Source: an uncultured Eggerthella sp. (GTDB taxonomy: Bacteria > Actinomycetota > Coriobacteriia > Coriobacteriales > Eggerthellaceae). Taken from it: a stretch of 64,000 nt of DNA. The notes beneath the pieces are model-generated. The model was not told where the DNA came from and did not search any database. It saw only the letters and a list, made by a program, of their open reading frames with translations. This document shows, piece after piece, positions 4,107 through 12,937 of the stretch (the first letter of the stretch is position 1; every line of letters starts with the position of its first letter). Location: NCBI GenBank assembly GCA_900546175.1, contig URBX01000003.1, positions 2,224-66,223 of the forward strand, written 5' to 3'. Both the position numbers and the translations under genes were made by a program.

Positions 4107-4145
4107 AAAAGCCATGGAAGCCCTTCCGAATTGGAAGGGCTTCTT
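4107..4145 (+). terminator. Rho-independent terminator
   Basis: GAAGCCCTTCC-gaat-TGGAAGGGCTTC stem-loop followed by TTTTTTAT. Confidence 0.6.
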
Positions 4146-4205
4146 TTTTATACAGCACCCCAACTCTGAGTCGTCCTTGTCTTGAATTTACCATTTGGTA
4201 TTTGT

Positions 4206-4240
4206 CTTGACGCATTGCAAATTCTTGCGGTAGAATACAA
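4206..4240 (+). promoter_or_regulatory. Sigma70-like promoter for the XRE/ImmA module
   Basis: TTGACG (4206-4211), 17-nt spacer, then GTAGAAT extended -10, about 35 nt upstream of the XRE start. Confidence 0.45.
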
Positions 4241-4276
4241 ATGGTAATGGAATTACCAGAAGGAAAGGGAGGAACT

Positions 4277-4591: not shown

Positions 4592-5164
4592 TTGCTATTG
4601 AAGCCATCACGCTATGAAGAGTTAAATCAGGAGGTCGTCAACCTTTTCGAGACCTACGGCATGTCTACCTTCCCGCTTGACGTTTTCTGTCTTGCTGGAA
4701 AAATGGGCGTCTGCTTGAGATCGTACTCGTCAATCCCCCTTGCCAAGCGTTCTGTCTTTGGGGACCTTTCCAAAGATGCATTCACCATCTCCAAGGGCAA
4801 ATATAAAGTCGACACTACGTTTATCTGTTTCAATCAGGACGCAAACGCAGGAAGGCTCAGGCACAGCATCGCCCATGAAATCGCTCACATCTGGTTGGAG
4901 CATCCAAGCGATGAGGAGCCCTTCGAAACCGAAGCCAATTATTTCGCGGCCTATCTTTTGGCGCCCATACCCGTCGTAATTAATAAGCAGCTAAGAACAC
5001 CTCGCGAAGTCCAGGATTATTTTGGAATCAGCCAGGAGGCTGCGCGAATCGCACTCGAGCGGGCAAGAAACCGCCGCAATTGCAGGAAACCTGGTTTTGA
5101 CTACGAATATCGTGTTATCGAAATGAGTGTTTTGAAGGGAGGTGGTTGCCTTGAGAGTGCTTAA
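4592..5164 (+). CDS. ImmA/IrrE family metallo-endopeptidase
   Basis: HEIAHIWLEH (HExxH) motif; immediately follows the XRE gene, the canonical XRE-ImmA pair of phage/ICE regulatory modules. Confidence 0.8.
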   Translation: MLLKPSRYEELNQEVVNLFETYGMSTFPLDVFCLAGKMGVCLRSYSSIPLAKRSVFGDLSKDAFTISKGKYKVDTTFICFNQDANAGRLRHSIAHEIAHIWLEHPSDEEPFETEANYFAAYLLAPIPVVINKQLRTPREVQDYFGISQEAARIALERARNRRNCRKPGFDYEYRVIEMSVLKGGGCLESA

Positions 5165-5403
5165 CAAAATACAGCCGCCGGAATTGGCGTTCCAGCGGCT
5201 GTGGGCGGCATGCAAATGCACACCACGTAGCAATGGTATTTTGCCATGCCGCTCATCAAATCCTTTCGTAAATAAACAAATTTTCGATGAGAAAGCATGG
5301 TGTACCCATGATTAACTGCAACTTGTCGCCCAAGAGCGTCTGCGACCTGTGCTGTGGCACGGGCAGTATCCTCCTCTCTTTCAGGGAAGGAGGTGATTGC
5401 TAG

Positions 5404-6066
5404 ATGAGCAAGCAAAACCATAAGAGGCCTGGATGCGTCGATGTATTTAGGTCCTATCTTGTCAACGATGCCTCGTTCGCGGGCGATCTTGAGATTCCAG
5501 TTATCCACCCGACAACAGTCGTGCCTAAAAAAATCGCTCCTTTCTCTCAAGCGATTTCAGCAAAAAACAGAGATTTGTGGGTGCATTTCTACGAGGACGA
5601 TGTGAAGTTCGAAAGGGTTTGGAACAACCCGAAGCGTTATCTGGAAATACTCTCTGGATTCGAAGGCGTTATTGCACCTGACTTCAGCGTATACAGAGAC
5701 ATGCCTCTCGTGATGCAATTCTGGAACATCTACAGATCTCGCGCAATAGCCCACGCGCTCCAATCCAGAGGCGTCACTGTCATCCCGAACCTGCGTTTTG
5801 GAGATAGGCGAACCTGGGAGGCTTGCTGCCTCGGAATCAGCAAGCGCTCGGTCATCGCGGTTGGAAGCTATGGGAATATCAAGAATGTGGAGGATCGAAG
5901 GCACTTCACTGATGGCCTCGACTATGTTTCAAACCGGATTAAACCATGCGCAATTGTTTTCTATGGCTCCACCCCCGATTCGATTCTAAGGAAGCTCCAA
6001 GGTGCCGGTATAGCGACTATTTCGTTTGAGAGCACGTTTTCCCAATCACGCAAGAGGAGCCGCTAA
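5404..6066 (+). CDS. Hypothetical protein, resembles the DUF4417 family (recalled from memory, unverified)
   Basis: 220 aa; motifs WVHFYEDDVKFERVWNNP and APDFSVYRDMP; RBS GGAAGGAGGTG upstream; its stop TAA overlaps the next start (TAATG). Confidence 0.5.
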   Translation: MSKQNHKRPGCVDVFRSYLVNDASFAGDLEIPVIHPTTVVPKKIAPFSQAISAKNRDLWVHFYEDDVKFERVWNNPKRYLEILSGFEGVIAPDFSVYRDMPLVMQFWNIYRSRAIAHALQSRGVTVIPNLRFGDRRTWEACCLGISKRSVIAVGSYGNIKNVEDRRHFTDGLDYVSNRIKPCAIVFYGSTPDSILRKLQGAGIATISFESTFSQSRKRSR

Positions 6067-6560
6067 TGGGCGGCGGATATCATGGCGGCTTTGGCGCAAC
6101 CTTGGGAAGTGCTTTTGCCGGAGATGCAAGCTTTATGGGCAGCTCAGAACGGTTTCTGAAAAACATCAGAAACCGCAATGATGTCGACCCTGGCGGAAAA
6201 TTCGACATCATCGCTCATGGAACAGCCCACACTATCGAAATCGAACACAATGGGCAAAAGATTCAGGTAAATTCGCGCACGGCGGCAAATATGATCAAGA
6301 GGCTTTCAGGCTACAACGGCCAAAGCATCAGGCTTCTGTCTTGCAGCACGGGATCAGACAGCGCAGGCTTCGCACAGAATCTCGCCAATAAGCTCGGCGT
6401 AACAGTGTATGCACCTAGCGATAAACTATGGGCATATGGGAATGGGCGCCATGTTATCGCCCCAACCAGTTTAACAAAAGACCGCTTTGGAAATCCACGG
6501 CCAGATCTCAGTAGACCCGGAAGATTTGTAAAATACACCCCAGGAGGTAACAAACGATGA
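6066..6560 (+). CDS. Hypothetical protein with a Gly-rich N-terminus and a candidate His-Gly...Cys catalytic dyad (caspase-fold/clan-CD-like arrangement is an inference)
   Basis: FDIIAHGTAH (hydrophobic strand + HG) and, about 50 aa later, SIRLLSCSTG (hydrophobic strand + Cys); start/stop coupled to both neighbours. Confidence 0.5.
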   Translation: MGGGYHGGFGATLGSAFAGDASFMGSSERFLKNIRNRNDVDPGGKFDIIAHGTAHTIEIEHNGQKIQVNSRTAANMIKRLSGYNGQSIRLLSCSTGSDSAGFAQNLANKLGVTVYAPSDKLWAYGNGRHVIAPTSLTKDRFGNPRPDLSRPGRFVKYTPGGNKR

Positions 6561-6904
6561 ACTGTCCTGAATGCAACGCTTCGACCATTTCTAAAATCGA
6601 GGGATCGAGCCTCGTTATCGAATGCGCAGAGTGCGGTTGGTCAATCGCAACCAGTCACATCGATCCGATCTACGAGGACGAGACGATTTACCTCGTTCAT
6701 GTAGGATTCAACAAGAACCCAAGCAAAGAGGCCCTCAAGGCTGTAGCGCGTATCACTGGAGGAAACTTCATCTCCGCAAAGCGCCTTCTCGAAACTCCAG
6801 GCTCAAAGCTAATCGAAGGAAAGGCTCCTGTAGTCAAGAAGTGCCTTGAAGACCTTACGGCCGCTGGCGTCAGTTTTGAGGTGAATCCCGAATTCCTCTT
6901 TTAG
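6557..6904 (+). CDS. Zn-ribbon protein with a ribosomal L7/L12 C-terminal-domain-like module
   Basis: N-terminal CPEC...CAEC zinc ribbon; the C-terminus LKAVARITGGNFISAKRLLETPGSKLIEGKAPVVKKCLEDLTAAGVSFEV aligns residue-by-residue in pattern with the L7/L12 CTD ([53 protein letters not shown]); its ATG overlaps the previous stop (ATGA). Confidence 0.6.
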   Translation: MNCPECNASTISKIEGSSLVIECAECGWSIATSHIDPIYEDETIYLVHVGFNKNPSKEALKAVARITGGNFISAKRLLETPGSKLIEGKAPVVKKCLEDLTAAGVSFEVNPEFLF

Positions 6905-6959
6905 CAGAGGCGTGTGATTTTTCGGTGTTGGGCCGCTGATGCTGTATGCGCCAGCGGCC

Positions 6960-7160
6960 CAGCCTCTCACAGCTTATTTCTTTTTGAATTTAAACTCGTG
7001 ACTCACAGTGACTCACAAAAATGTCTCGGTTGACCCAAAAAACCGTGACCCAAATTTGACCACAGCCAAACGTCAATTTTTGAGACTGAGCGTAAATAGG
7101 ATCATCTAGAACAAACTGCGATAAACTGGAGCAAACTGGAGAGAGTTTTTTACTATTGAG
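6960..7160. repeat. Non-coding region with short direct repeats
   Basis: GTGACTCACA x2 in tandem (about 6998-7017), several TGACCCA copies, AAACTGGAG x3 (7117-7143); no credible ORF between 6905 and 7750. Confidence 0.4.
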
Positions 7161-7753: not shown

Positions 7754-8704
7754 CTAGAACTCGATGTCAATCTTAAAGAACTGACGTTGCTCGTTTTTGA
7801 ATTCTCCCTTGATGTCTACGTTAGCTTCGGCATCAAGCTTTTCGAGTACAGCGTTCACCTTTGCTGCTGCGTTTGCGGTCATGCTGGCATTTGAGCTGTT
7901 CTTGATCACCCTGTGATACTCATGAATCTTGTTGTCGCTCTCTTCGTCACACCTTGCACGTACGAGCTGCGTGATCTCTGCGCTTTCCGCATACCACTTC
8001 AGCTTCGGTTCGACAGGCGTACTACTGCCCTTGAACGACTGGGAAACTACAGCCTTCTTCTCAACGACCTTTAGGGCCTCGGCACTCATCTCTCCAGTCT
8101 CGGAGCAGTTGATGTCTACCTCCTTGGCTTCCGCCTTGGCCTTACGGGCGAGTCCGCCTTTGCCGACCTTAACCTTCTTTGCATATTCATAGGTCTCGAT
8201 GGTGCACTTCTTAGCGCCGAGCGAGTAAGCAATCTCGAACAACTCTGCGCGTCTTTCATCTTGCATGGTGTCAAAGAACTTGTCTATGTTGACGTAGCGC
8301 GTTCCGAACTTGTCTACATAGTAAATCGACCAGCTTTCGGCATGAGGGTAGAACTGAATGCCGCTTCGTTCCACTTCTCTTTCGTAGAGGTGGAGAACGG
8401 TTACGCCAGCGGCCCTGCTAATCCAGCCGATAGCTCCCTCCATAACATCAACGCTTTCCCTTGAGCCGTTGTCTACAATGGTGATCAGCTTGGGCATTTG
8501 GAAGTTAGGGGCTTCAAAATCTGTGCGGCTGATCGGGTTGTAGTACCTCTTCTTAGCCTTCATTAGCTCGCCGGATGCGCCTTCCGCGACGTTGTGCGCG
8601 GTGTTGGAAGCCAACTCAACGGCGCGACCGCTAATCTCTTTCGTTTTTTCAGCGGCTCTTGAGGCGGACTTCCTGATAATATTGCTGGGATTCTCTTTCG
8701 CCAT
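7754..8704 (-). CDS. Hypothetical protein (316 aa), no recognisable domain
   Basis: Long ORF with lower GC than its flanks, opposite strand to its neighbours, Lys/Glu-rich central region. Confidence 0.5.
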   Translation of the reverse strand: MAKENPSNIIRKSASRAAEKTKEISGRAVELASNTAHNVAEGASGELMKAKKRYYNPISRTDFEAPNFQMPKLITIVDNGSRESVDVMEGAIGWISRAAGVTVLHLYEREVERSGIQFYPHAESWSIYYVDKFGTRYVNIDKFFDTMQDERRAELFEIAYSLGAKKCTIETYEYAKKVKVGKGGLARKAKAEAKEVDINCSETGEMSAEALKVVEKKAVVSQSFKGSSTPVEPKLKWYAESAEITQLVRARCDEESDNKIHEYHRVIKNSSNASMTANAAAKVNAVLEKLDAEANVDIKGEFKNEQRQFFKIDIEF

Positions 8705-9186: not shown

Positions 9187-9396
9187 ATGAGCTACAAGGA
9201 ACTGATCAAGAGCGGCGCCGACGCGACCGACATCCAGCAATATCTGGTTGATGGCGAGATGACCGCCATCACCATCCGCATCCCGAAGAATCTTCGGGAT
9301 AGCGCTAAAGAAGCCGCAGAGCTTCGTGGAATGAGCTTCAGCACGTTGATCCGCAAGTGCATGATTGACGAGCTTTCGAATATCGAGAGGGGCTAG
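9187..9396 (+). CDS. Small ribbon-helix-helix (CopG/Arc-like) protein upstream of hsdM
   Basis: ITIRIPKNLRDSAKEAAELRGMSFSTLIRKCMIDEL: beta-strand plus two helices typical of RHH DNA-binding proteins; its stop is 1 nt before the hsdM ATG. Confidence 0.5.
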   Translation: MSYKELIKSGADATDIQQYLVDGEMTAITIRIPKNLRDSAKEAAELRGMSFSTLIRKCMIDELSNIERG

Positions 9397-9397
9397 C

Positions 9398-10978
9398 ATG
9401 GCTGACACCACTAAGGAACAGCAGCGCGCCGAGCTGCACAAAACAATCTGGTCCATCGCCGACGACTTGCGCGGCAGCGTGGACGGTTGGGACTTCAAGC
9501 AATACATCCTATGCACGCTCTTCTACCGCTTCGTGAGCGAGAACCTTTGCGCCTACCTTGCCGAGCAGGAAGGTGACCCCTCCTTCGACTACGCTTCCAT
9601 GCCTGACGACCAAGCCGAGTGGGGTCGCGAGGAGACCGTCAAGGAGAAAGGTTTCTTCATCCTTCCCAGCGAGCTATTCTGCAACATCCTCAAGCGCGTG
9701 GACAAGGACGGCATGCGCCTGACCGAGGATGGGCAGGACCTCAACGAGCTGCTGACCCAGGTATTTAAGAATATCGAGGGTTCTGCTGTTGGCACGGAGT
9801 CTGAGGGCGACCTCAAGGGCCTGTTCGACGACATGGACGTCAACAGCGCCAAGCTAGGCAACTCGGTCATCGAGCGCAACAAGAAGCTGGTGAAGCTCAT
9901 CTCCAAGATCGGCTCGCTGGACTTCGGCGGTGCCTTCCAGGACAACTCCATCGACGCCTTCGGCGACGCCTACGAGTTCCTCATGACCATGTACGCCTCC
10001 AACGCCGGCAAGTCCGGTGGCGAGTTCTTCACCCCGCAGGAGGTGGGCGAGCTTTTGGCGCGTATTGCCATCGGCGATCGCAAGAGCGTGAACAAGGTAT
10101 ACGACCCTTGCTGCGGCAGCGGTGGCCTGCTGTTGAAGTTTGCAAAGATCCTGGGCAAGGAAAACGTGCGCGGCGGATACTTTGGCCAGGAGATCAACCT
10201 GACCACCTACAACCTTGCCCGCATCAATATGTTCCTGCACGACGTGAACTTCGATAAGTTCGATATTGCGTTGGGCGATACACTCAAGGAGCCCGCCCAT
10301 TGGGACGATGAGCCATTTGATGCCATTGTTTCGAATCCGCCCTACTCCATCAAGTGGGAAGGCAAGGGCAACCCCCTCAACATCAACGACGCTCGCTTCA
10401 GTCCCGCAGGAGTTTTGGCGCCCGCCAGCAAGGCGGACCTAGCCTTCACCATGCACATGCTGAGCTGGCTTAGCACTGAGGGCACAGCCGCCATCGTCGA
10501 GTTCCCCGGCGTGCTCTACCGTGGAGGTGCCGAGGGTAAGATCCGCGATTATATGGTGCGCAACAACTTTGTCGAGGCGGTCATCCAGCTTCCGGCTGAC
10601 CTGTTCTTTGGTACCACCATTGCTACTTGCATCATCGTGCTTAAGAAGAACAAGAACGCAAGCAATGTGCTGTTCATCGACGCCAGCGAGCAGTTCGAGC
10701 GCCGCGACTCCAAGAACAAGCTGATGCCCGCTAACATCGACCGCATCATGGACGCAATCGCTGCGCGCGCAGAGGAGGATCACTTCTCCAAGCTGGTTTC
10801 CAATGACGAGATCTTGACAAACGACGCCAACCTGTCCGTTAGCTCTTACGTCGAGAAGAAGGACGAACGCGAGGAAATCGATATCGCCGAGCTCAATGCA
10901 GAAATCAAACGCATCGTAGCGCGTGAGCAGGAACTGCGCGAAAAAATTGACGCCATCGTGGCCAACTTGGAAGGCTAG
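9398..10978 (+). CDS. hsdM: Type I restriction-modification system, DNA methyltransferase subunit M
   Basis: N6-adenine MTase motif I DPCCGSGGLL and motif IV NPPYSIKW; HsdM N-terminal domain; start chosen at MADTTKEQQ with RBS GAGAGGGG. Confidence 0.92.
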   Translation: MADTTKEQQRAELHKTIWSIADDLRGSVDGWDFKQYILCTLFYRFVSENLCAYLAEQEGDPSFDYASMPDDQAEWGREETVKEKGFFILPSELFCNILKRVDKDGMRLTEDGQDLNELLTQVFKNIEGSAVGTESEGDLKGLFDDMDVNSAKLGNSVIERNKKLVKLISKIGSLDFGGAFQDNSIDAFGDAYEFLMTMYASNAGKSGGEFFTPQEVGELLARIAIGDRKSVNKVYDPCCGSGGLLLKFAKILGKENVRGGYFGQEINLTTYNLARINMFLHDVNFDKFDIALGDTLKEPAHWDDEPFDAIVSNPPYSIKWEGKGNPLNINDARFSPAGVLAPASKADLAFTMHMLSWLSTEGTAAIVEFPGVLYRGGAEGKIRDYMVRNNFVEAVIQLPADLFFGTTIATCIIVLKKNKNASNVLFIDASEQFERRDSKNKLMPANIDRIMDAIAARAEEDHFSKLVSNDEILTNDANLSVSSYVEKKDEREEIDIAELNAEIKRIVAREQELREKIDAIVANLEG

Positions 10979-10983
10979 TCAAA

Positions 10984-11796
10984 ATGGGAAATAAAGAAAC
11001 GCAGGCAGCTCACGAGCTAGCTATCCTCAACCATCTTAAACAGCTTTTATGCGAAGGATACAATCTGAAGCATTATTTTGCCTGCTCTCAAGATGATGTT
11101 GAATCCATCAAGGCGGCTCTTCTTTCGGCTGAACAGAATCAAGAAACCACTTTTCCTGATTTCTCTGCTGAGGCTTGCTGCATTGAGCTATTTGCTATTT
11201 CGTCTTCTGAGCAAGGAAAGAAATGCGGACCGCTTCAATCAAAGCAAGATGGCGACCTTCAGAGGACAATTGCCAATGATGATGAAAGGACGGCATTGGC
11301 CAAAAACGGCCAGACTCGCGTTTACACCCAAGTTCATCCCCAGCATAGCTACGAACATCTTTCCCGATCTCTGAGGGAAAACTTCGGGAGTCATCTGAAT
11401 AGCTTACGTCGATCTAAAAATGAATATCTGACAAGGATTTTCGTAGTCGAATATCCAGAAACCGACCTTCACTGCTTTTTTAGTCCAGATTCTGATTTGA
11501 GGTACGAAGGTCTCTGTATGGGTGATTTTACTGCCGAGTATTCTAATGGAAGAGATAACGGATTATATCGCTTGAGCAGGGATAAAGAGAATCTTAACTG
11601 GCTTGGTGAATACGCTGATGAGGTTGATTACGTAATTTTCCACGGAGTGCATTCCGTGGAAGTGATAAACCTGCACAACGTGGGACAAATAACAGGATTC
11701 CTTCCATGGCGCATGCGTTCTTATCCGGCGATGGCTATAACATATGCAACCTCAATCTTTCTAGGGTCGTTCGAGAAAGGCTCAAATAATGAATAG
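10984..11796 (+). CDS. Unknown 270-aa protein embedded between hsdM and hsdS; candidate RM-associated accessory/defence gene
   Basis: Starts 5 nt after the hsdM stop and its stop overlaps the hsdS ATG (ATGAATAG); visibly lower GC than the flanking hsd genes; no Walker, HNH or other clear motif; weak R-x5-H (RENFGSH) noted. Confidence 0.6.
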   Translation: MGNKETQAAHELAILNHLKQLLCEGYNLKHYFACSQDDVESIKAALLSAEQNQETTFPDFSAEACCIELFAISSSEQGKKCGPLQSKQDGDLQRTIANDDERTALAKNGQTRVYTQVHPQHSYEHLSRSLRENFGSHLNSLRRSKNEYLTRIFVVEYPETDLHCFFSPDSDLRYEGLCMGDFTAEYSNGRDNGLYRLSRDKENLNWLGEYADEVDYVIFHGVHSVEVINLHNVGQITGFLPWRMRSYPAMAITYATSIFLGSFEKGSNNE

Positions 11797-12937
11797 CATT
11801 GAAGGACTAATCGAACGGCTCTGTCCTGATGGGGTGGAATATAAGCCCCTAAGATCTATTGCCAAGATAGTTGGAGGTAAGGACTACAAACACCTTGCTG
11901 CAGGAAGTGTGCCTGTATATGGAAGCGGTGGCGTGATGACCTATGTCGATACTGCCGCATACGATAAACCTTCTGTCTTGCTTCCGCGTAAGGGGTCAAT
12001 TTCAAACGTGTTCTATGTTGATGGGCCGTTTTGGAATGTTGATACGGTTTTTTATACAGAAATTGACGAGTCACAAATAATGCCAAGATTCTTCTTTCAC
12101 GTGATTCTTGCCGAGCATATTGAGAAGTTAAACACATCAAACGCAGCGCGCCCTGCTTTGACGAGAACAGTGTTAGATAAGATTCAAATCCCTGTTCCTC
12201 CTCTAGAAGTCCAAGAAGAGATAGTGCGAATTCTCGATACCTTTTCAGAGCTAGAAGCAGAGCTAGAAGCAGAGCTAGAAGCAGAGCTAGAGGCGCGCAA
12301 GGCGCAGTATGCCTACTACCGTAGCAATATCCTCGGCAGGTGCGCCGACAAGGTTGCTCTTGGAAGTATTTGCAAATCGGTTTGCTCTGGTGGGACACCC
12401 AACAAAAAGAATCCTGAATACTACGAGAACGCTACTATTCCTTGGCTTCGAACGCAGCAGGTTGCGTTCAATGAGATATTCGAGGTCGACTCCTTCATCT
12501 CTGAAGCCGGATTGAAGGGCTCTTCTGCAAAGTGGATTCCTGCTAATTGCGTGATTGTCGCAATCTCTGGAGCAACCGCTGGGCGATGCGCGATCAATAA
12601 GATTCCGCTAACGACAAACCAACACTGTCTGAACATGGAAATTGATGAAGCTGTTGCAGACTACAGGTATGTTTACCACTGCGTCTGCAATCAAAACGAG
12701 GAGCTTCTTTCAAAGAAAGAGGGTGCTCGCGGAGATTTGAATGCTTCGCGAATCAAGAGTCTCGAAATTCCTCTGCCTTCTCTGGAAGAGCAGCGTTCCA
12801 TTGTGGAGATACTCGACAATTTCGACAAACTTTGTGGAGATATCACGCAGGGTCTTCCCGCGGAAATCGAGGCGCGCCGCAAGCAGTATGCCTACTATCG
12901 CGACAAGCTCCTGACCTTCAAGGAGAAGAAAGCATGA
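11789..12937 (+). CDS. hsdS: Type I restriction-modification system, specificity subunit S
   Basis: Two target-recognition domains separated by a conserved central region; two repeated conserved segments (ELEARKAQYAYYRSNIL and EIEARRKQYAYYRDKLL) typical of the HsdS internal duplication. Confidence 0.9.
   Translation: MNSIEGLIERLCPDGVEYKPLRSIAKIVGGKDYKHLAAGSVPVYGSGGVMTYVDTAAYDKPSVLLPRKGSISNVFYVDGPFWNVDTVFYTEIDESQIMPRFFFHVILAEHIEKLNTSNAARPALTRTVLDKIQIPVPPLEVQEEIVRILDTFSELEAELEAELEAELEARKAQYAYYRSNILGRCADKVALGSICKSVCSGGTPNKKNPEYYENATIPWLRTQQVAFNEIFEVDSFISEAGLKGSSAKWIPANCVIVAISGATAGRCAINKIPLTTNQHCLNMEIDEAVADYRYVYHCVCNQNEELLSKKEGARGDLNASRIKSLEIPLPSLEEQRSIVEILDNFDKLCGDITQGLPAEIEARRKQYAYYRDKLLTFKEKKA
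12248..12295 (+). repeat. In-frame 12-bp tandem repeat (GAGCTAGAAGCA x3 plus GAGCTAGAGGCG) encoding ELEA x4 in the hsdS central conserved region
   Basis: Read directly from the sequence: SELEAELEAELEAELEARKAQYAYY. Confidence 0.85.

Follow-up and report, generated by a model that had tools for sequence, protein, structure and literature searches.

We analysed a 64,000-nucleotide stretch of DNA (hereafter the window) from an uncultured Eggerthella sp. (contig URBX01000003.1), in which three open reading frames (ORFs) on the same strand form a tightly packed operon. The genes, here called g1 (5404-6066, 220 amino acids, aa), g2 (6066-6560, 164 aa) and g3 (6557-6904, 115 aa), are joined by two start/stop overlaps, TAATG at 6064-6068 between g1 and g2 and ATGA at 6557-6560 between g2 and g3, and a strong Shine-Dalgarno sequence precedes every start (GGAGGTG for 5404, AAGAGGAG for 6066 and AGGAGG for 6557). 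Coordinates and overlaps are exactly those of a first-pass annotation made by a model from the letters of the window, which described a translationally coupled operon without assignable function and guessed at a conflict system. We propose, at a probability of roughly 60%, that g1-g3 form the core of a polymorphic toxin-immunity cassette found in (gut) Firmicutes, one that is compact, has three components and moves horizontally. The operon contains the following features:

5404..6066, + strand: g1, a DUF4417 gene, the constant component of the cassette
6066..6113, + strand: leader of g2, residues 1-16 (MGGGYHGGFGATLGSA), predicted to be disordered and nearly invariant
6066..6560, + strand: g2, predicted toxin of the clan-CD (CPD/C80/DUF4347-like) cysteine protease type, with His51 at 6216-6218 and Cys93 at 6342-6344
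6557..6904, + strand: g3, predicted cognate immunity protein, a zinc ribbon plus a homologue of the C-terminal domain (CTD) of ribosomal protein bL12

Homologues of g2 number in the hundreds, and the HG...C dyad that had been noticed in the protein holds up on alignment, with H51, G52 and C93 invariant in 70 homologues. No Pfam family matches g2 above threshold (Peptidase_C80 scores 15.0 bits, below its cutoff of 23.8), and half of the g2 family returns recurrent sub-threshold matches to DUF4347 and Peptidase_C80, the best at E=2e-4 for both. An AlphaFold model of g2 (pLDDT 83.8) is closest to clan-CD cysteine proteases, with further structural matches to CHAT, gingipain, clostripain, legumain and caspases. 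In this model H51-G52 follows the strand at residues 46-49 and C93 the strand at residues 88-91, in the His-before-Cys order of clan CD, and the predicted structure shows the caspase-hemoglobinase fold. Judged by the model, g2 folds as a clan-CD, CPD-like cysteine protease. Just before the strand of the catalytic His lies an invariant acidic loop, R-x-D-x-D-x-x-G-x-x-D (residues 37-47, 6174-6206), which resembles a motif for metal binding. In CPDs it is normally inositol hexakisphosphate (InsP6) that activates the enzyme, through a basic pocket, and with an acidic loop in g2 its regulation may differ from theirs. The known CDI/T6SS protease toxins StbD-CT (a C39 peptidase) and Cpe1 (papain-like) were considered as relatives and set aside because their folds differ, and no characterised toxin of the g2 family was found in the PDB or in the literature searched.

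The company that the g2 domain keeps suggests what such a protease is used for. Our survey covered 80 genome loci with a g2 relative and the window, 81 in all, with the ORFs of retrieved loci called mechanically; the domain is fused to a larger protein in 13 of them and unfused in 68. Fused copies occupy the extreme C-terminus of proteins of 292 to ~2,800 aa, some of them cut by a contig end. One such protein (L034) has the architecture of CdiA, with TPS, Fil_haemagg_2/hemagglutinin repeats and DUF637 ahead of the g2 domain, and another (L044) has RHS repeats in that place; PT-VENN precedes the domain in P0161, and hemagglutinin repeats precede it in P0200 and P0226. An exhaustive profile search retrieved the domain in 3031 cluster representatives at E<=1e-3, mostly in C-terminal position. 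That the domain ends CdiA and Rhs delivery proteins and has an immunity gene after it supports the reading of g2 as a toxin domain. A gene that had been called unassignable can thus be reassigned, by fold and by CdiA/Rhs context, as a predicted clan-CD protease toxin. Fusion of g2 to DUF4417 was considered and rejected: none of 10 mid-sized g2-containing proteins carries DUF4417, and PT-VENN or hemagglutinin repeats are found instead. Neither g2 nor g3 was found in phages or viral contigs, the g2 search covering 2.9 million viral contigs and 50,697 phage records, and plasmids gave four weak partial g2/g3 matches only.

The third protein combines a CxxC...CxxC zinc ribbon (~residues 1-33) with a bL12-CTD homologue (~residues 44-115). 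The first-pass annotation had seen both parts, and both stand: the ribbon has its four cysteines, and the beta-alpha-alpha-beta-alpha-beta fold of the C-terminal domain superposes on the bL12 CTD. A relationship to bL12 may also show in the sequence, where g3 keeps the helix 4-5 signature 'K.V...G...AK.L.E', the g3 family profile reaches L7/L12 in the PDB at E=5.6e-4, and 5 of 34 family members match PF00542 (best E=7.3e-6); the window g3 itself has no Pfam Ribosomal_L12 match. The N-terminal dimerisation domain and hinge of bL12 are absent, with the four-Cys zinc ribbon in their place. No Pfam immunity (Imm) family matches g3, nor does any Pfam DNA-binding family above threshold. A g3 homologue lies directly 3' of all 13 fused g2 genes and of 50/68 unfused ones, and because it follows g2 directly, including after CdiA and Rhs, we read g3 as the cognate immunity protein. 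This prediction gives a role to a gene left unassigned at first pass, and it moves the L7/L12-like module, whose presence is not in question, from an effector to the immunity protein. The earlier guess of a conflict system with a toxic gene 2 and gene 3 as its partner is likewise upheld, g2 being a CdiA/Rhs C-terminal domain with g3 homologues directly behind it.

In 17 loci the partner is a different protein of ~130 aa, unrelated to g3 and paired with a g2 subclade. Members of this subclade (L052, L056, L060, L061, L063, L066, L067, L070, L072-L075 and L077-L080) are ~157 aa long and divergent in their C-terminal 30 residues, and their partner, MNIISxGYYKEMPHG...TDGTWxWPGDLxYYV, has no Pfam match.

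Polymorphic toxin systems combine a constant N-terminal module with interchangeable C-terminal toxins and co-varying 3' immunity genes (PMC3482391), and a comparable division into constant and variable parts is found around the unfused g2 genes. DUF4417 lies within 3.5 kb of 59/68 of them (genome loci, window included), usually with a stop/start overlap of one base, and 57 of the 68 have an immunity gene as well as DUF4417, for the most part with -1 and -4 overlaps like those in the window. Such an arrangement goes far beyond what chance would give, and co-occurrence of the three genes is conserved. The nine unfused g2 genes without DUF4417 are fragments, lie at the edge of a contig or belong to proteobacterial orphan cassettes, and DUF4417 stands beside none of the 13 fused toxins. 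Stand-alone g2 proteins begin with a leader (residues 1-18, pLDDT<50) that is nearly invariant and is missing from the CdiA/Rhs-fused copies. In the window toxin the 164 aa are made up of the disordered residues 1-18 and the protease domain, and scans of Pfam, NCBIfam and PHROGs revealed no trafficking domain.

A second set of loci was anchored on DUF4417 itself and consists of the best 80 of at least 567 metagenome matches, 49-59% identical to g1. Enough downstream sequence was available in 69, and g2 is present in 20 of these and missing from 49. In most of the 49, the next ORF after DUF4417, which in the main overlaps it by one base, is 113-175 aa long and joins the same leader to an unrelated body. 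The leader consensus, from position counts in 110 proteins, is MG(A/T/G)G(Y/F)HGGFGxTxG, ~15 residues in length. When all 138 confident DUF4417 loci were pooled, 107 had a leader ORF, with 98 such ORFs directly downstream of DUF4417 and 12 upstream. The 105 leader proteins that could be compared by body fall into 16 BLAST families, one of them a masked-sequence artefact, which leaves ~15 real ones. A downstream ORF is adjacent in 90 leader proteins, and toxin and partner co-vary one to one: across 15 families each has its own partner family and none is shared. The constant part of the cassette is thus the DUF4417 gene with the ~15-residue leader, and the variable part is the toxin domain with the immunity gene that follows. 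Because the leader is constant, the bodies are variable and each family's downstream partner is private to it, we classify the cassette as a polymorphic toxin system. The three-domain combination that had looked unlike any described system is accordingly one allele of a varied set, in which only DUF4417 and the 15-residue leader are fixed. Some alleles are very abundant: a single one accounts for 582 contigs, from Anaerostipes and Blautia.

A single DUF4417 is in some loci accompanied by two or three leader toxins, with up to three in L100. An apparent alternative gene order, xre-imm-g2-g3-X-g1, was reread as a single DUF4417 with two toxin-immunity pairs beside it, since the DUF4417 gene in these loci precedes a second leader toxin. 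Several diverged cassettes or leader toxins also occur in single genomes or loci (L031/L033 and L036/L068, each pair in one metagenome-assembled genome; L100; L179), as expected of diversifying toxin-immunity systems. At L012, L040, L045, L049, L057, L059 and L064, a small, conserved Cys-rich ORF (56-66 aa in most; YxCPxxCPIxKxCFIIK...KC) without a Pfam match lies between the first toxin-immunity pair and DUF4417.

The toxin bodies other than g2, and their partners, are labelled 'hypothetical protein' in every source. Toxin families F2, F3, F5, F7 and F15 have no recorded Pfam match, and PDB sequence searches with the F6 and F15 bodies returned nothing meaningful. Some bodies contain what we take, by eye, to be an ELHH...H (HNH/EndoVII-, HNH/LHH-like) or HExxH motif. 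In the F1 toxins (L097, L101, L121, L132, L142 and L160) the leader is immediately followed by (M/L)N(L/I)Q(L/F)F(A/G), the cleavage motif of the Firmicutes protease Prp, by which ribosomal protein L27 is trimmed (PMC9405229); the F1 leader is therefore probably removed.

The constant gene, g1, matches DUF4417 (PF14386) at E=1.5e-62 and 210.8 bits (cutoff 28.9) over model positions 3-175 of 183, which confirms the identification made at first pass, and 25/25 cassette homologues match the same model. Further matches of the protein are to phrog_8680 and, in its C-terminal half, to phrog_940; we attribute the 'nuclease' label of phrog_940 to fusion with a ParB-like domain, an arrangement seen in Streptococcus phage IPP52. 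Residues D66, D93, S95 (PDxS) and G157 are invariant in g1 and its phage homologues. The papers found to mention DUF4417 or PF14386 assign the domain no function and describe no cassette of this type. The sole recurrent weak Pfam match, to R.HinP1I, was found in 3 of 25 members at E=0.022 and was dismissed as not significant, and kinship between DUF4417 and g2 was rejected on an hhalign probability of 0.1%.

DUF4417 is present in at least 505 phage records, where it is found directly before terminase or at the cos-proximal end. The phage gene, too, overlaps a following gene for a glycine-rich protein in Alma, a Dorea phage and IPP52. In Mycobacterium phage Alma (gp1-gp2, L182:380-2109) gp2 begins MGGRGGASG... 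and carries HELGH; in Dorea phage DO134P1 (L090:3522-4533) the protein after DUF4417 begins MGGRGSASG...; and in Streptococcus phage IPP52 (L181:1045-2866) there is an internal GGGRGANF stretch together with a HNHPNGSNFSSTD (JAB-like) motif. All three gene pairs adjoin terminase or the cos end.

The operon is preceded by a putative regulatory module and followed by a hairpin, with these features:

4116..4144, + strand: terminator-like hairpin with a T-run (13-bp stem, 7 GC pairs, TTTTTTAT tail), closing the upstream unit
4188..4247, + strand: promoter-like TTGACG-18-TAGAAT (4207-4236) inside a perfect 10-nt inverted repeat, TTACCATTTG / CAAATGGTAA
4277..4582, + strand: XRE-family helix-turn-helix (HTH) repressor (HTH_3, E=1.8e-13)
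4592..5164, + strand: ImmA/IrrE-type Peptidase_M78, 190 aa, with an HEIAH motif (E=1.2e-10)
5165..5403, + strand: structured 239-nt spacer between ImmA and g1 (minimum free energy, MFE, -90.1 kcal/mol, z=-4.81)
6908..6975, + strand: GC-rich extended hairpin, then UUAUUUCUUUUU (MFE -37.7 kcal/mol, z=-4.18)

The first hairpin marks the left boundary of the cassette and the last is the probable operon terminator. The exact repeat TTACCATTTG/CAAATGGTAA is found only at these two places within the window and is a candidate XRE operator. The XRE gene likely starts at ATG 4277, behind AAGGGAGGAA, and not at the listed ORF start at 4241; XRE homologues are 101 aa long. The M78 protein is the short, ImmA-like form without an extra sensor domain; at 190 aa and with the M78 domain as its only Pfam match, it lacks a GAF domain. 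XRE/M78 pairs de-repress cargo operons through signal-activated cleavage of the repressor and control many immune operons (PMC13228613). The first-pass annotation had treated the XRE/ImmA pair as a neighbouring module of a mobile genetic element; it does lie upstream, but it is more than a neighbour, since the xre-imm pair stands directly upstream of the cassette in at least 35 of 59 genome loci and is a conserved part of it.

The spacer is conserved in part among close relatives. Its last hairpin pairs CCUCCUC with the g1 Shine-Dalgarno sequence, and similar spacer hairpins are found in some relatives (L081, L001, L005 and L006). Sequestration of the Shine-Dalgarno sequence as a general trait was rejected, the paired fraction being 0.75 vs 0.70 in shuffles over 50 loci, and no Rfam match was found in the spacer at E<=1.

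We hypothesize that these elements act in the following way. XRE would repress the promoter at 4207-4236 until a stress or phage signal leads the ImmA-type M78 peptidase to cleave it, whereupon DUF4417, toxin and immunity protein would be made together through translational coupling. DUF4417 might then recognise or chemically process the leader, so that the toxin is matured, routed or released, in parallel with the action of the S8 peptidase on the BetaH module in a system discussed below. The immunity protein may block the protease with its bL12-like surface, as a decoy of bL12, and because it is bL12-like we suggest the ribosomal stalk or its GTPase partners as a possible target of the toxin.

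Several observations weigh against a polymorphic toxin cassette. The cassette has no secretion signal, transporter or lysis gene, and its toxins of 110-175 aa have no visible route to other cells; since toxin and immunity protein are co-induced, induction alone does not free the toxin. Among the variable families g2 alone is tied to a known toxin, the HNH/LHH-like and HExxH readings were made by eye, and F3 has no same-strand downstream partner. About 40% of genome cassettes have no recognisable XRE/ImmA pair, the DUF4417-anchored metagenome loci (best 80 of at least 567) include near-duplicates, and sequence and profile searches found no DUF4417 relatives of known structure or chemistry. The lack of any export signal or machinery would be expected of a system that acts inside the cell, namely an abortive-infection or toxin-antitoxin (TA)-like defence in which the ImmA/XRE switch responds to phage infection or DNA damage, DUF4417 is the sensor or trigger and the freed toxin arrests the cell. 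Copies of phage proteins in hosts often serve as sensors or decoys; DUF4417 is otherwise a phage gene (505 phage records), and g2 is absent from the phages searched. In addition, some cassettes adjoin defence genes (Type I restriction-modification, RM, with GmrSD; ThsA/ThsB; AAA_21/RloB; methyltransferase (MTase)/PLD restriction), and many immune operons are under XRE/M78 switches (PMC13228613). However, an invariant leader on every toxin would be superfluous if the toxin stayed inside, many cassettes sit among housekeeping genes, PADLOC gives no match, and a tight immunity protein expressed together with the toxin leaves no obvious way to free it. Gene order is also that of polymorphic toxins, with the toxin before its immunity gene, whereas type II TA systems usually have the antitoxin first (PMC3482391). 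We regard an intracellular defence as unlikely, but as the main rival of the polymorphic toxin cassette.

The delivery problem would be solved if the cassette were derived from a phage system for cargo loading, in which DUF4417 and the leader direct the toxin into phage or helper capsids for injection with the DNA, and cassettes hitch-hike on co-induced prophages. Phage DUF4417 genes, as described above, lie just before terminase or are cos-proximal and are followed by genes for glycine-rich-leader proteins (MGGRGSASG... in the Dorea phage, MGGRGGASG...HELGH in Alma gp2), and one toxin family has a Prp cleavage motif after the leader. Prp also trims the capsid and scaffold proteins of phage 80alpha. 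Cleavage of the 80alpha capsid and scaffolding proteins is the subject of PMC5744158, and switches of the ImmA/XRE kind are typically found in prophages and integrative elements (PMC13228613, citing Bose and Grossman 2011). Against this, most cassettes have no structural phage genes in or near them, g2 was not found in the viral contigs and phage records given above, and the phage leaders (MGGRG...) are unlike the cassette leader (MGAGYHGGFG). Cargo loading thus appears quite improbable, and slightly more so in the fuller form in which DUF4417 would load leader proteins into the phage's own capsids (for example those of mycobacteriophage cluster A, through gp1-gp2) or into capsids supplied by a co-induced helper prophage, the next cell would receive the toxins by injection, and the payload here would cut the ribosomal stalk or its partners with the immunity protein as a bL12 decoy. 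If true, it would make the cassettes 'virion-hitchhiking' polymorphic toxins. Alternatively, g2 could be a processing protease that activates DUF4417 or another operon product, with g3 as its regulator: self-processing is the classical role of clan-CD CPD domains, the majority of the caspase-like domains found in polymorphic toxins serve as releasing peptidases (Zhang et al. 2012, PMC3482391), and protease-activated operonic effectors are known in defence (PMC13228613). We consider this very improbable. In CdiA and Rhs proteins the g2 domain comes last and g3 follows, with DUF4417 absent, which is a toxin/immunity signature, and because other cassettes hold unrelated, non-protease domains in the g2 slot, DUF4417 cannot depend on cleavage by g2.

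Among described systems, the one most like the polymorphic toxin cassette that we favour is the S8-peptidase polymorphic toxin system (S8-PTS, PMC9424270). In both, a constant accessory gene comes first, then a toxin whose N-terminal module is constant and last an immunity gene specific to the toxin family, and the numbers of toxin families are similar (16 in S8-PTS, ~15 here). They differ in that the accessory gene here is DUF4417 and not a subtilase, and that a disordered, glycine-rich peptide of ~15 residues takes the place of a signal peptide and folded BetaH domain. Unlike S8-PTS, the cassette lacks a Sec signal and hence any evident means of export; it frequently has an XRE/ImmA switch, and DUF4417 has phage homologues beside terminase.

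The toxin-immunity pair itself has its counterpart in CdiA-CT/CdiI and Rhs-CT/RhsI, where the g2 domain is C-terminal after TPS/FHA repeats/DUF637, PT-VENN or RHS and a g3 homologue comes next; unlike those toxins, the window g2 stands alone, at 164 aa and with no delivery domain. Caspase-like 'Tox-Caspase' domains, with an H...C dyad, are a listed class of polymorphic toxins, with Imm36 and Imm57 as their immunity families (Zhang et al. 2012, PMC3482391), whereas g3, with its zinc ribbon and bL12-CTD, matches no Pfam Imm family. The C80 CPDs of MARTX and TcdA/TcdB, which are InsP6-activated self-processing domains of anti-eukaryotic toxins, and the DUF4347 proteins Tce1 and Tce2 share ~15% identity with g2, with Pfam scores below gathering. 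Tce1 and Tce2, which are type VI secretion system effectors, lack an immunity gene and have no antibacterial action (PMC13323088), in contrast to g2 with its predicted dedicated immunity protein. The nearest known counterparts of g3 are the CTD of ribosomal bL12 and ClpS; unlike bL12, g3 has a zinc ribbon instead of the dimerisation domain and hinge, and it is the partner of a toxin and not part of an rplJL operon. The pair also differs from type II TA systems in that the toxin gene precedes the immunity gene and g3 matches no DNA-binding family above threshold. With regard to regulation, ImmR/ImmA of ICEBs1, IrrE/DdrO and CapH/CapP likewise place an XRE-HTH gene and then a Peptidase_M78 gene upstream of a cargo operon. 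In CapP and IrrE a GAF domain and the peptidase form a groove that binds single-stranded DNA (PMC13228613); the window M78 peptidase lacks GAF and resembles the short ImmA, and the pair is co-directional with its cargo.

Thus, g2/g3 is a new family within a known class, that of caspase-like polymorphic toxins with an immunity protein, and DUF4417 with leader toxin and immunity gene makes up an apparently new type of polymorphic toxin system with three components, because its constant part (DUF4417 and leader) differs from those of known systems. It would provide the first functional context for DUF4417, an orphan domain that is gene 1 of many mycobacteriophages and occurs in ParB fusions. A CPD-like protease serving as an antibacterial CdiA/Rhs toxin with a bL12-derived immunity protein would also offer a testable target, the ribosomal stalk or translational GTPases, and the leader, as a short transferable tag, would allow its reader and its export, processing or packaging route to be sought.

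The cassette (4-7 kb) has a GC content of 0.49-0.505, lower than the 0.55-0.58 found upstream; HTH_3 and Peptidase_M78 genes lie on its upstream side, and a Type I RM system (HsdM, HsdS and HsdR) with GmrSD lies downstream, which agrees with the earlier description of an accessory mid-GC stretch. Insertion sites are unrelated among chromosomes and often fall between housekeeping genes with no integrase nearby; some cassettes lie between ribosomal-protein, tRNA-synthetase or polysaccharide genes. A setting in defence islands, also proposed earlier, is found in some loci (Thoeris-like, AAA_21/RloB, Fic and RM) but not in those among housekeeping genes. A housekeeping role for the operon was rejected on the variable insertion sites, a GC content below that of the flanks and high allelic diversity, and Pfam profile searches of g1-g3 assigned none of them to a well-characterised housekeeping family. 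In PADLOC-DB v2, g1 and g2 have no matches and g3 has only a chance zinc-ribbon match (E=0.032).

Among the neighbours of individual cassettes, a divergent ThsA-Macro and ThsB-TIR pair adjoins L036 (confirmed by Pfam), with similar-looking pairs at L028 and L048. AAA_21 with RloB adjoins L011, and AAA_21 alone is found at L019 and L180. Fic genes neighbour L014, L033 and L093, and L176/L177 lie beside a large N6_N4 MTase and a PLD-type nuclease. In the window, a 316-aa ORF on the minus strand (7754-8704), which separates the RM island from the cassette, matches nothing significantly in Pfam, PHROGs, PADLOC or NCBIfam, and a 270-aa ORF without a Pfam match (10984-11796) lies between hsdM (9365-10978) and hsdS (11789-12937), its end overlapping the hsdS start. 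Just upstream of hsdM, and overlapping its annotated TTG start, a 69-aa ORF (9187-9396) encodes a CopG/DUF6290-like ribbon-helix-helix protein, which may be a regulator of the RM island or an antitoxin-like gene.

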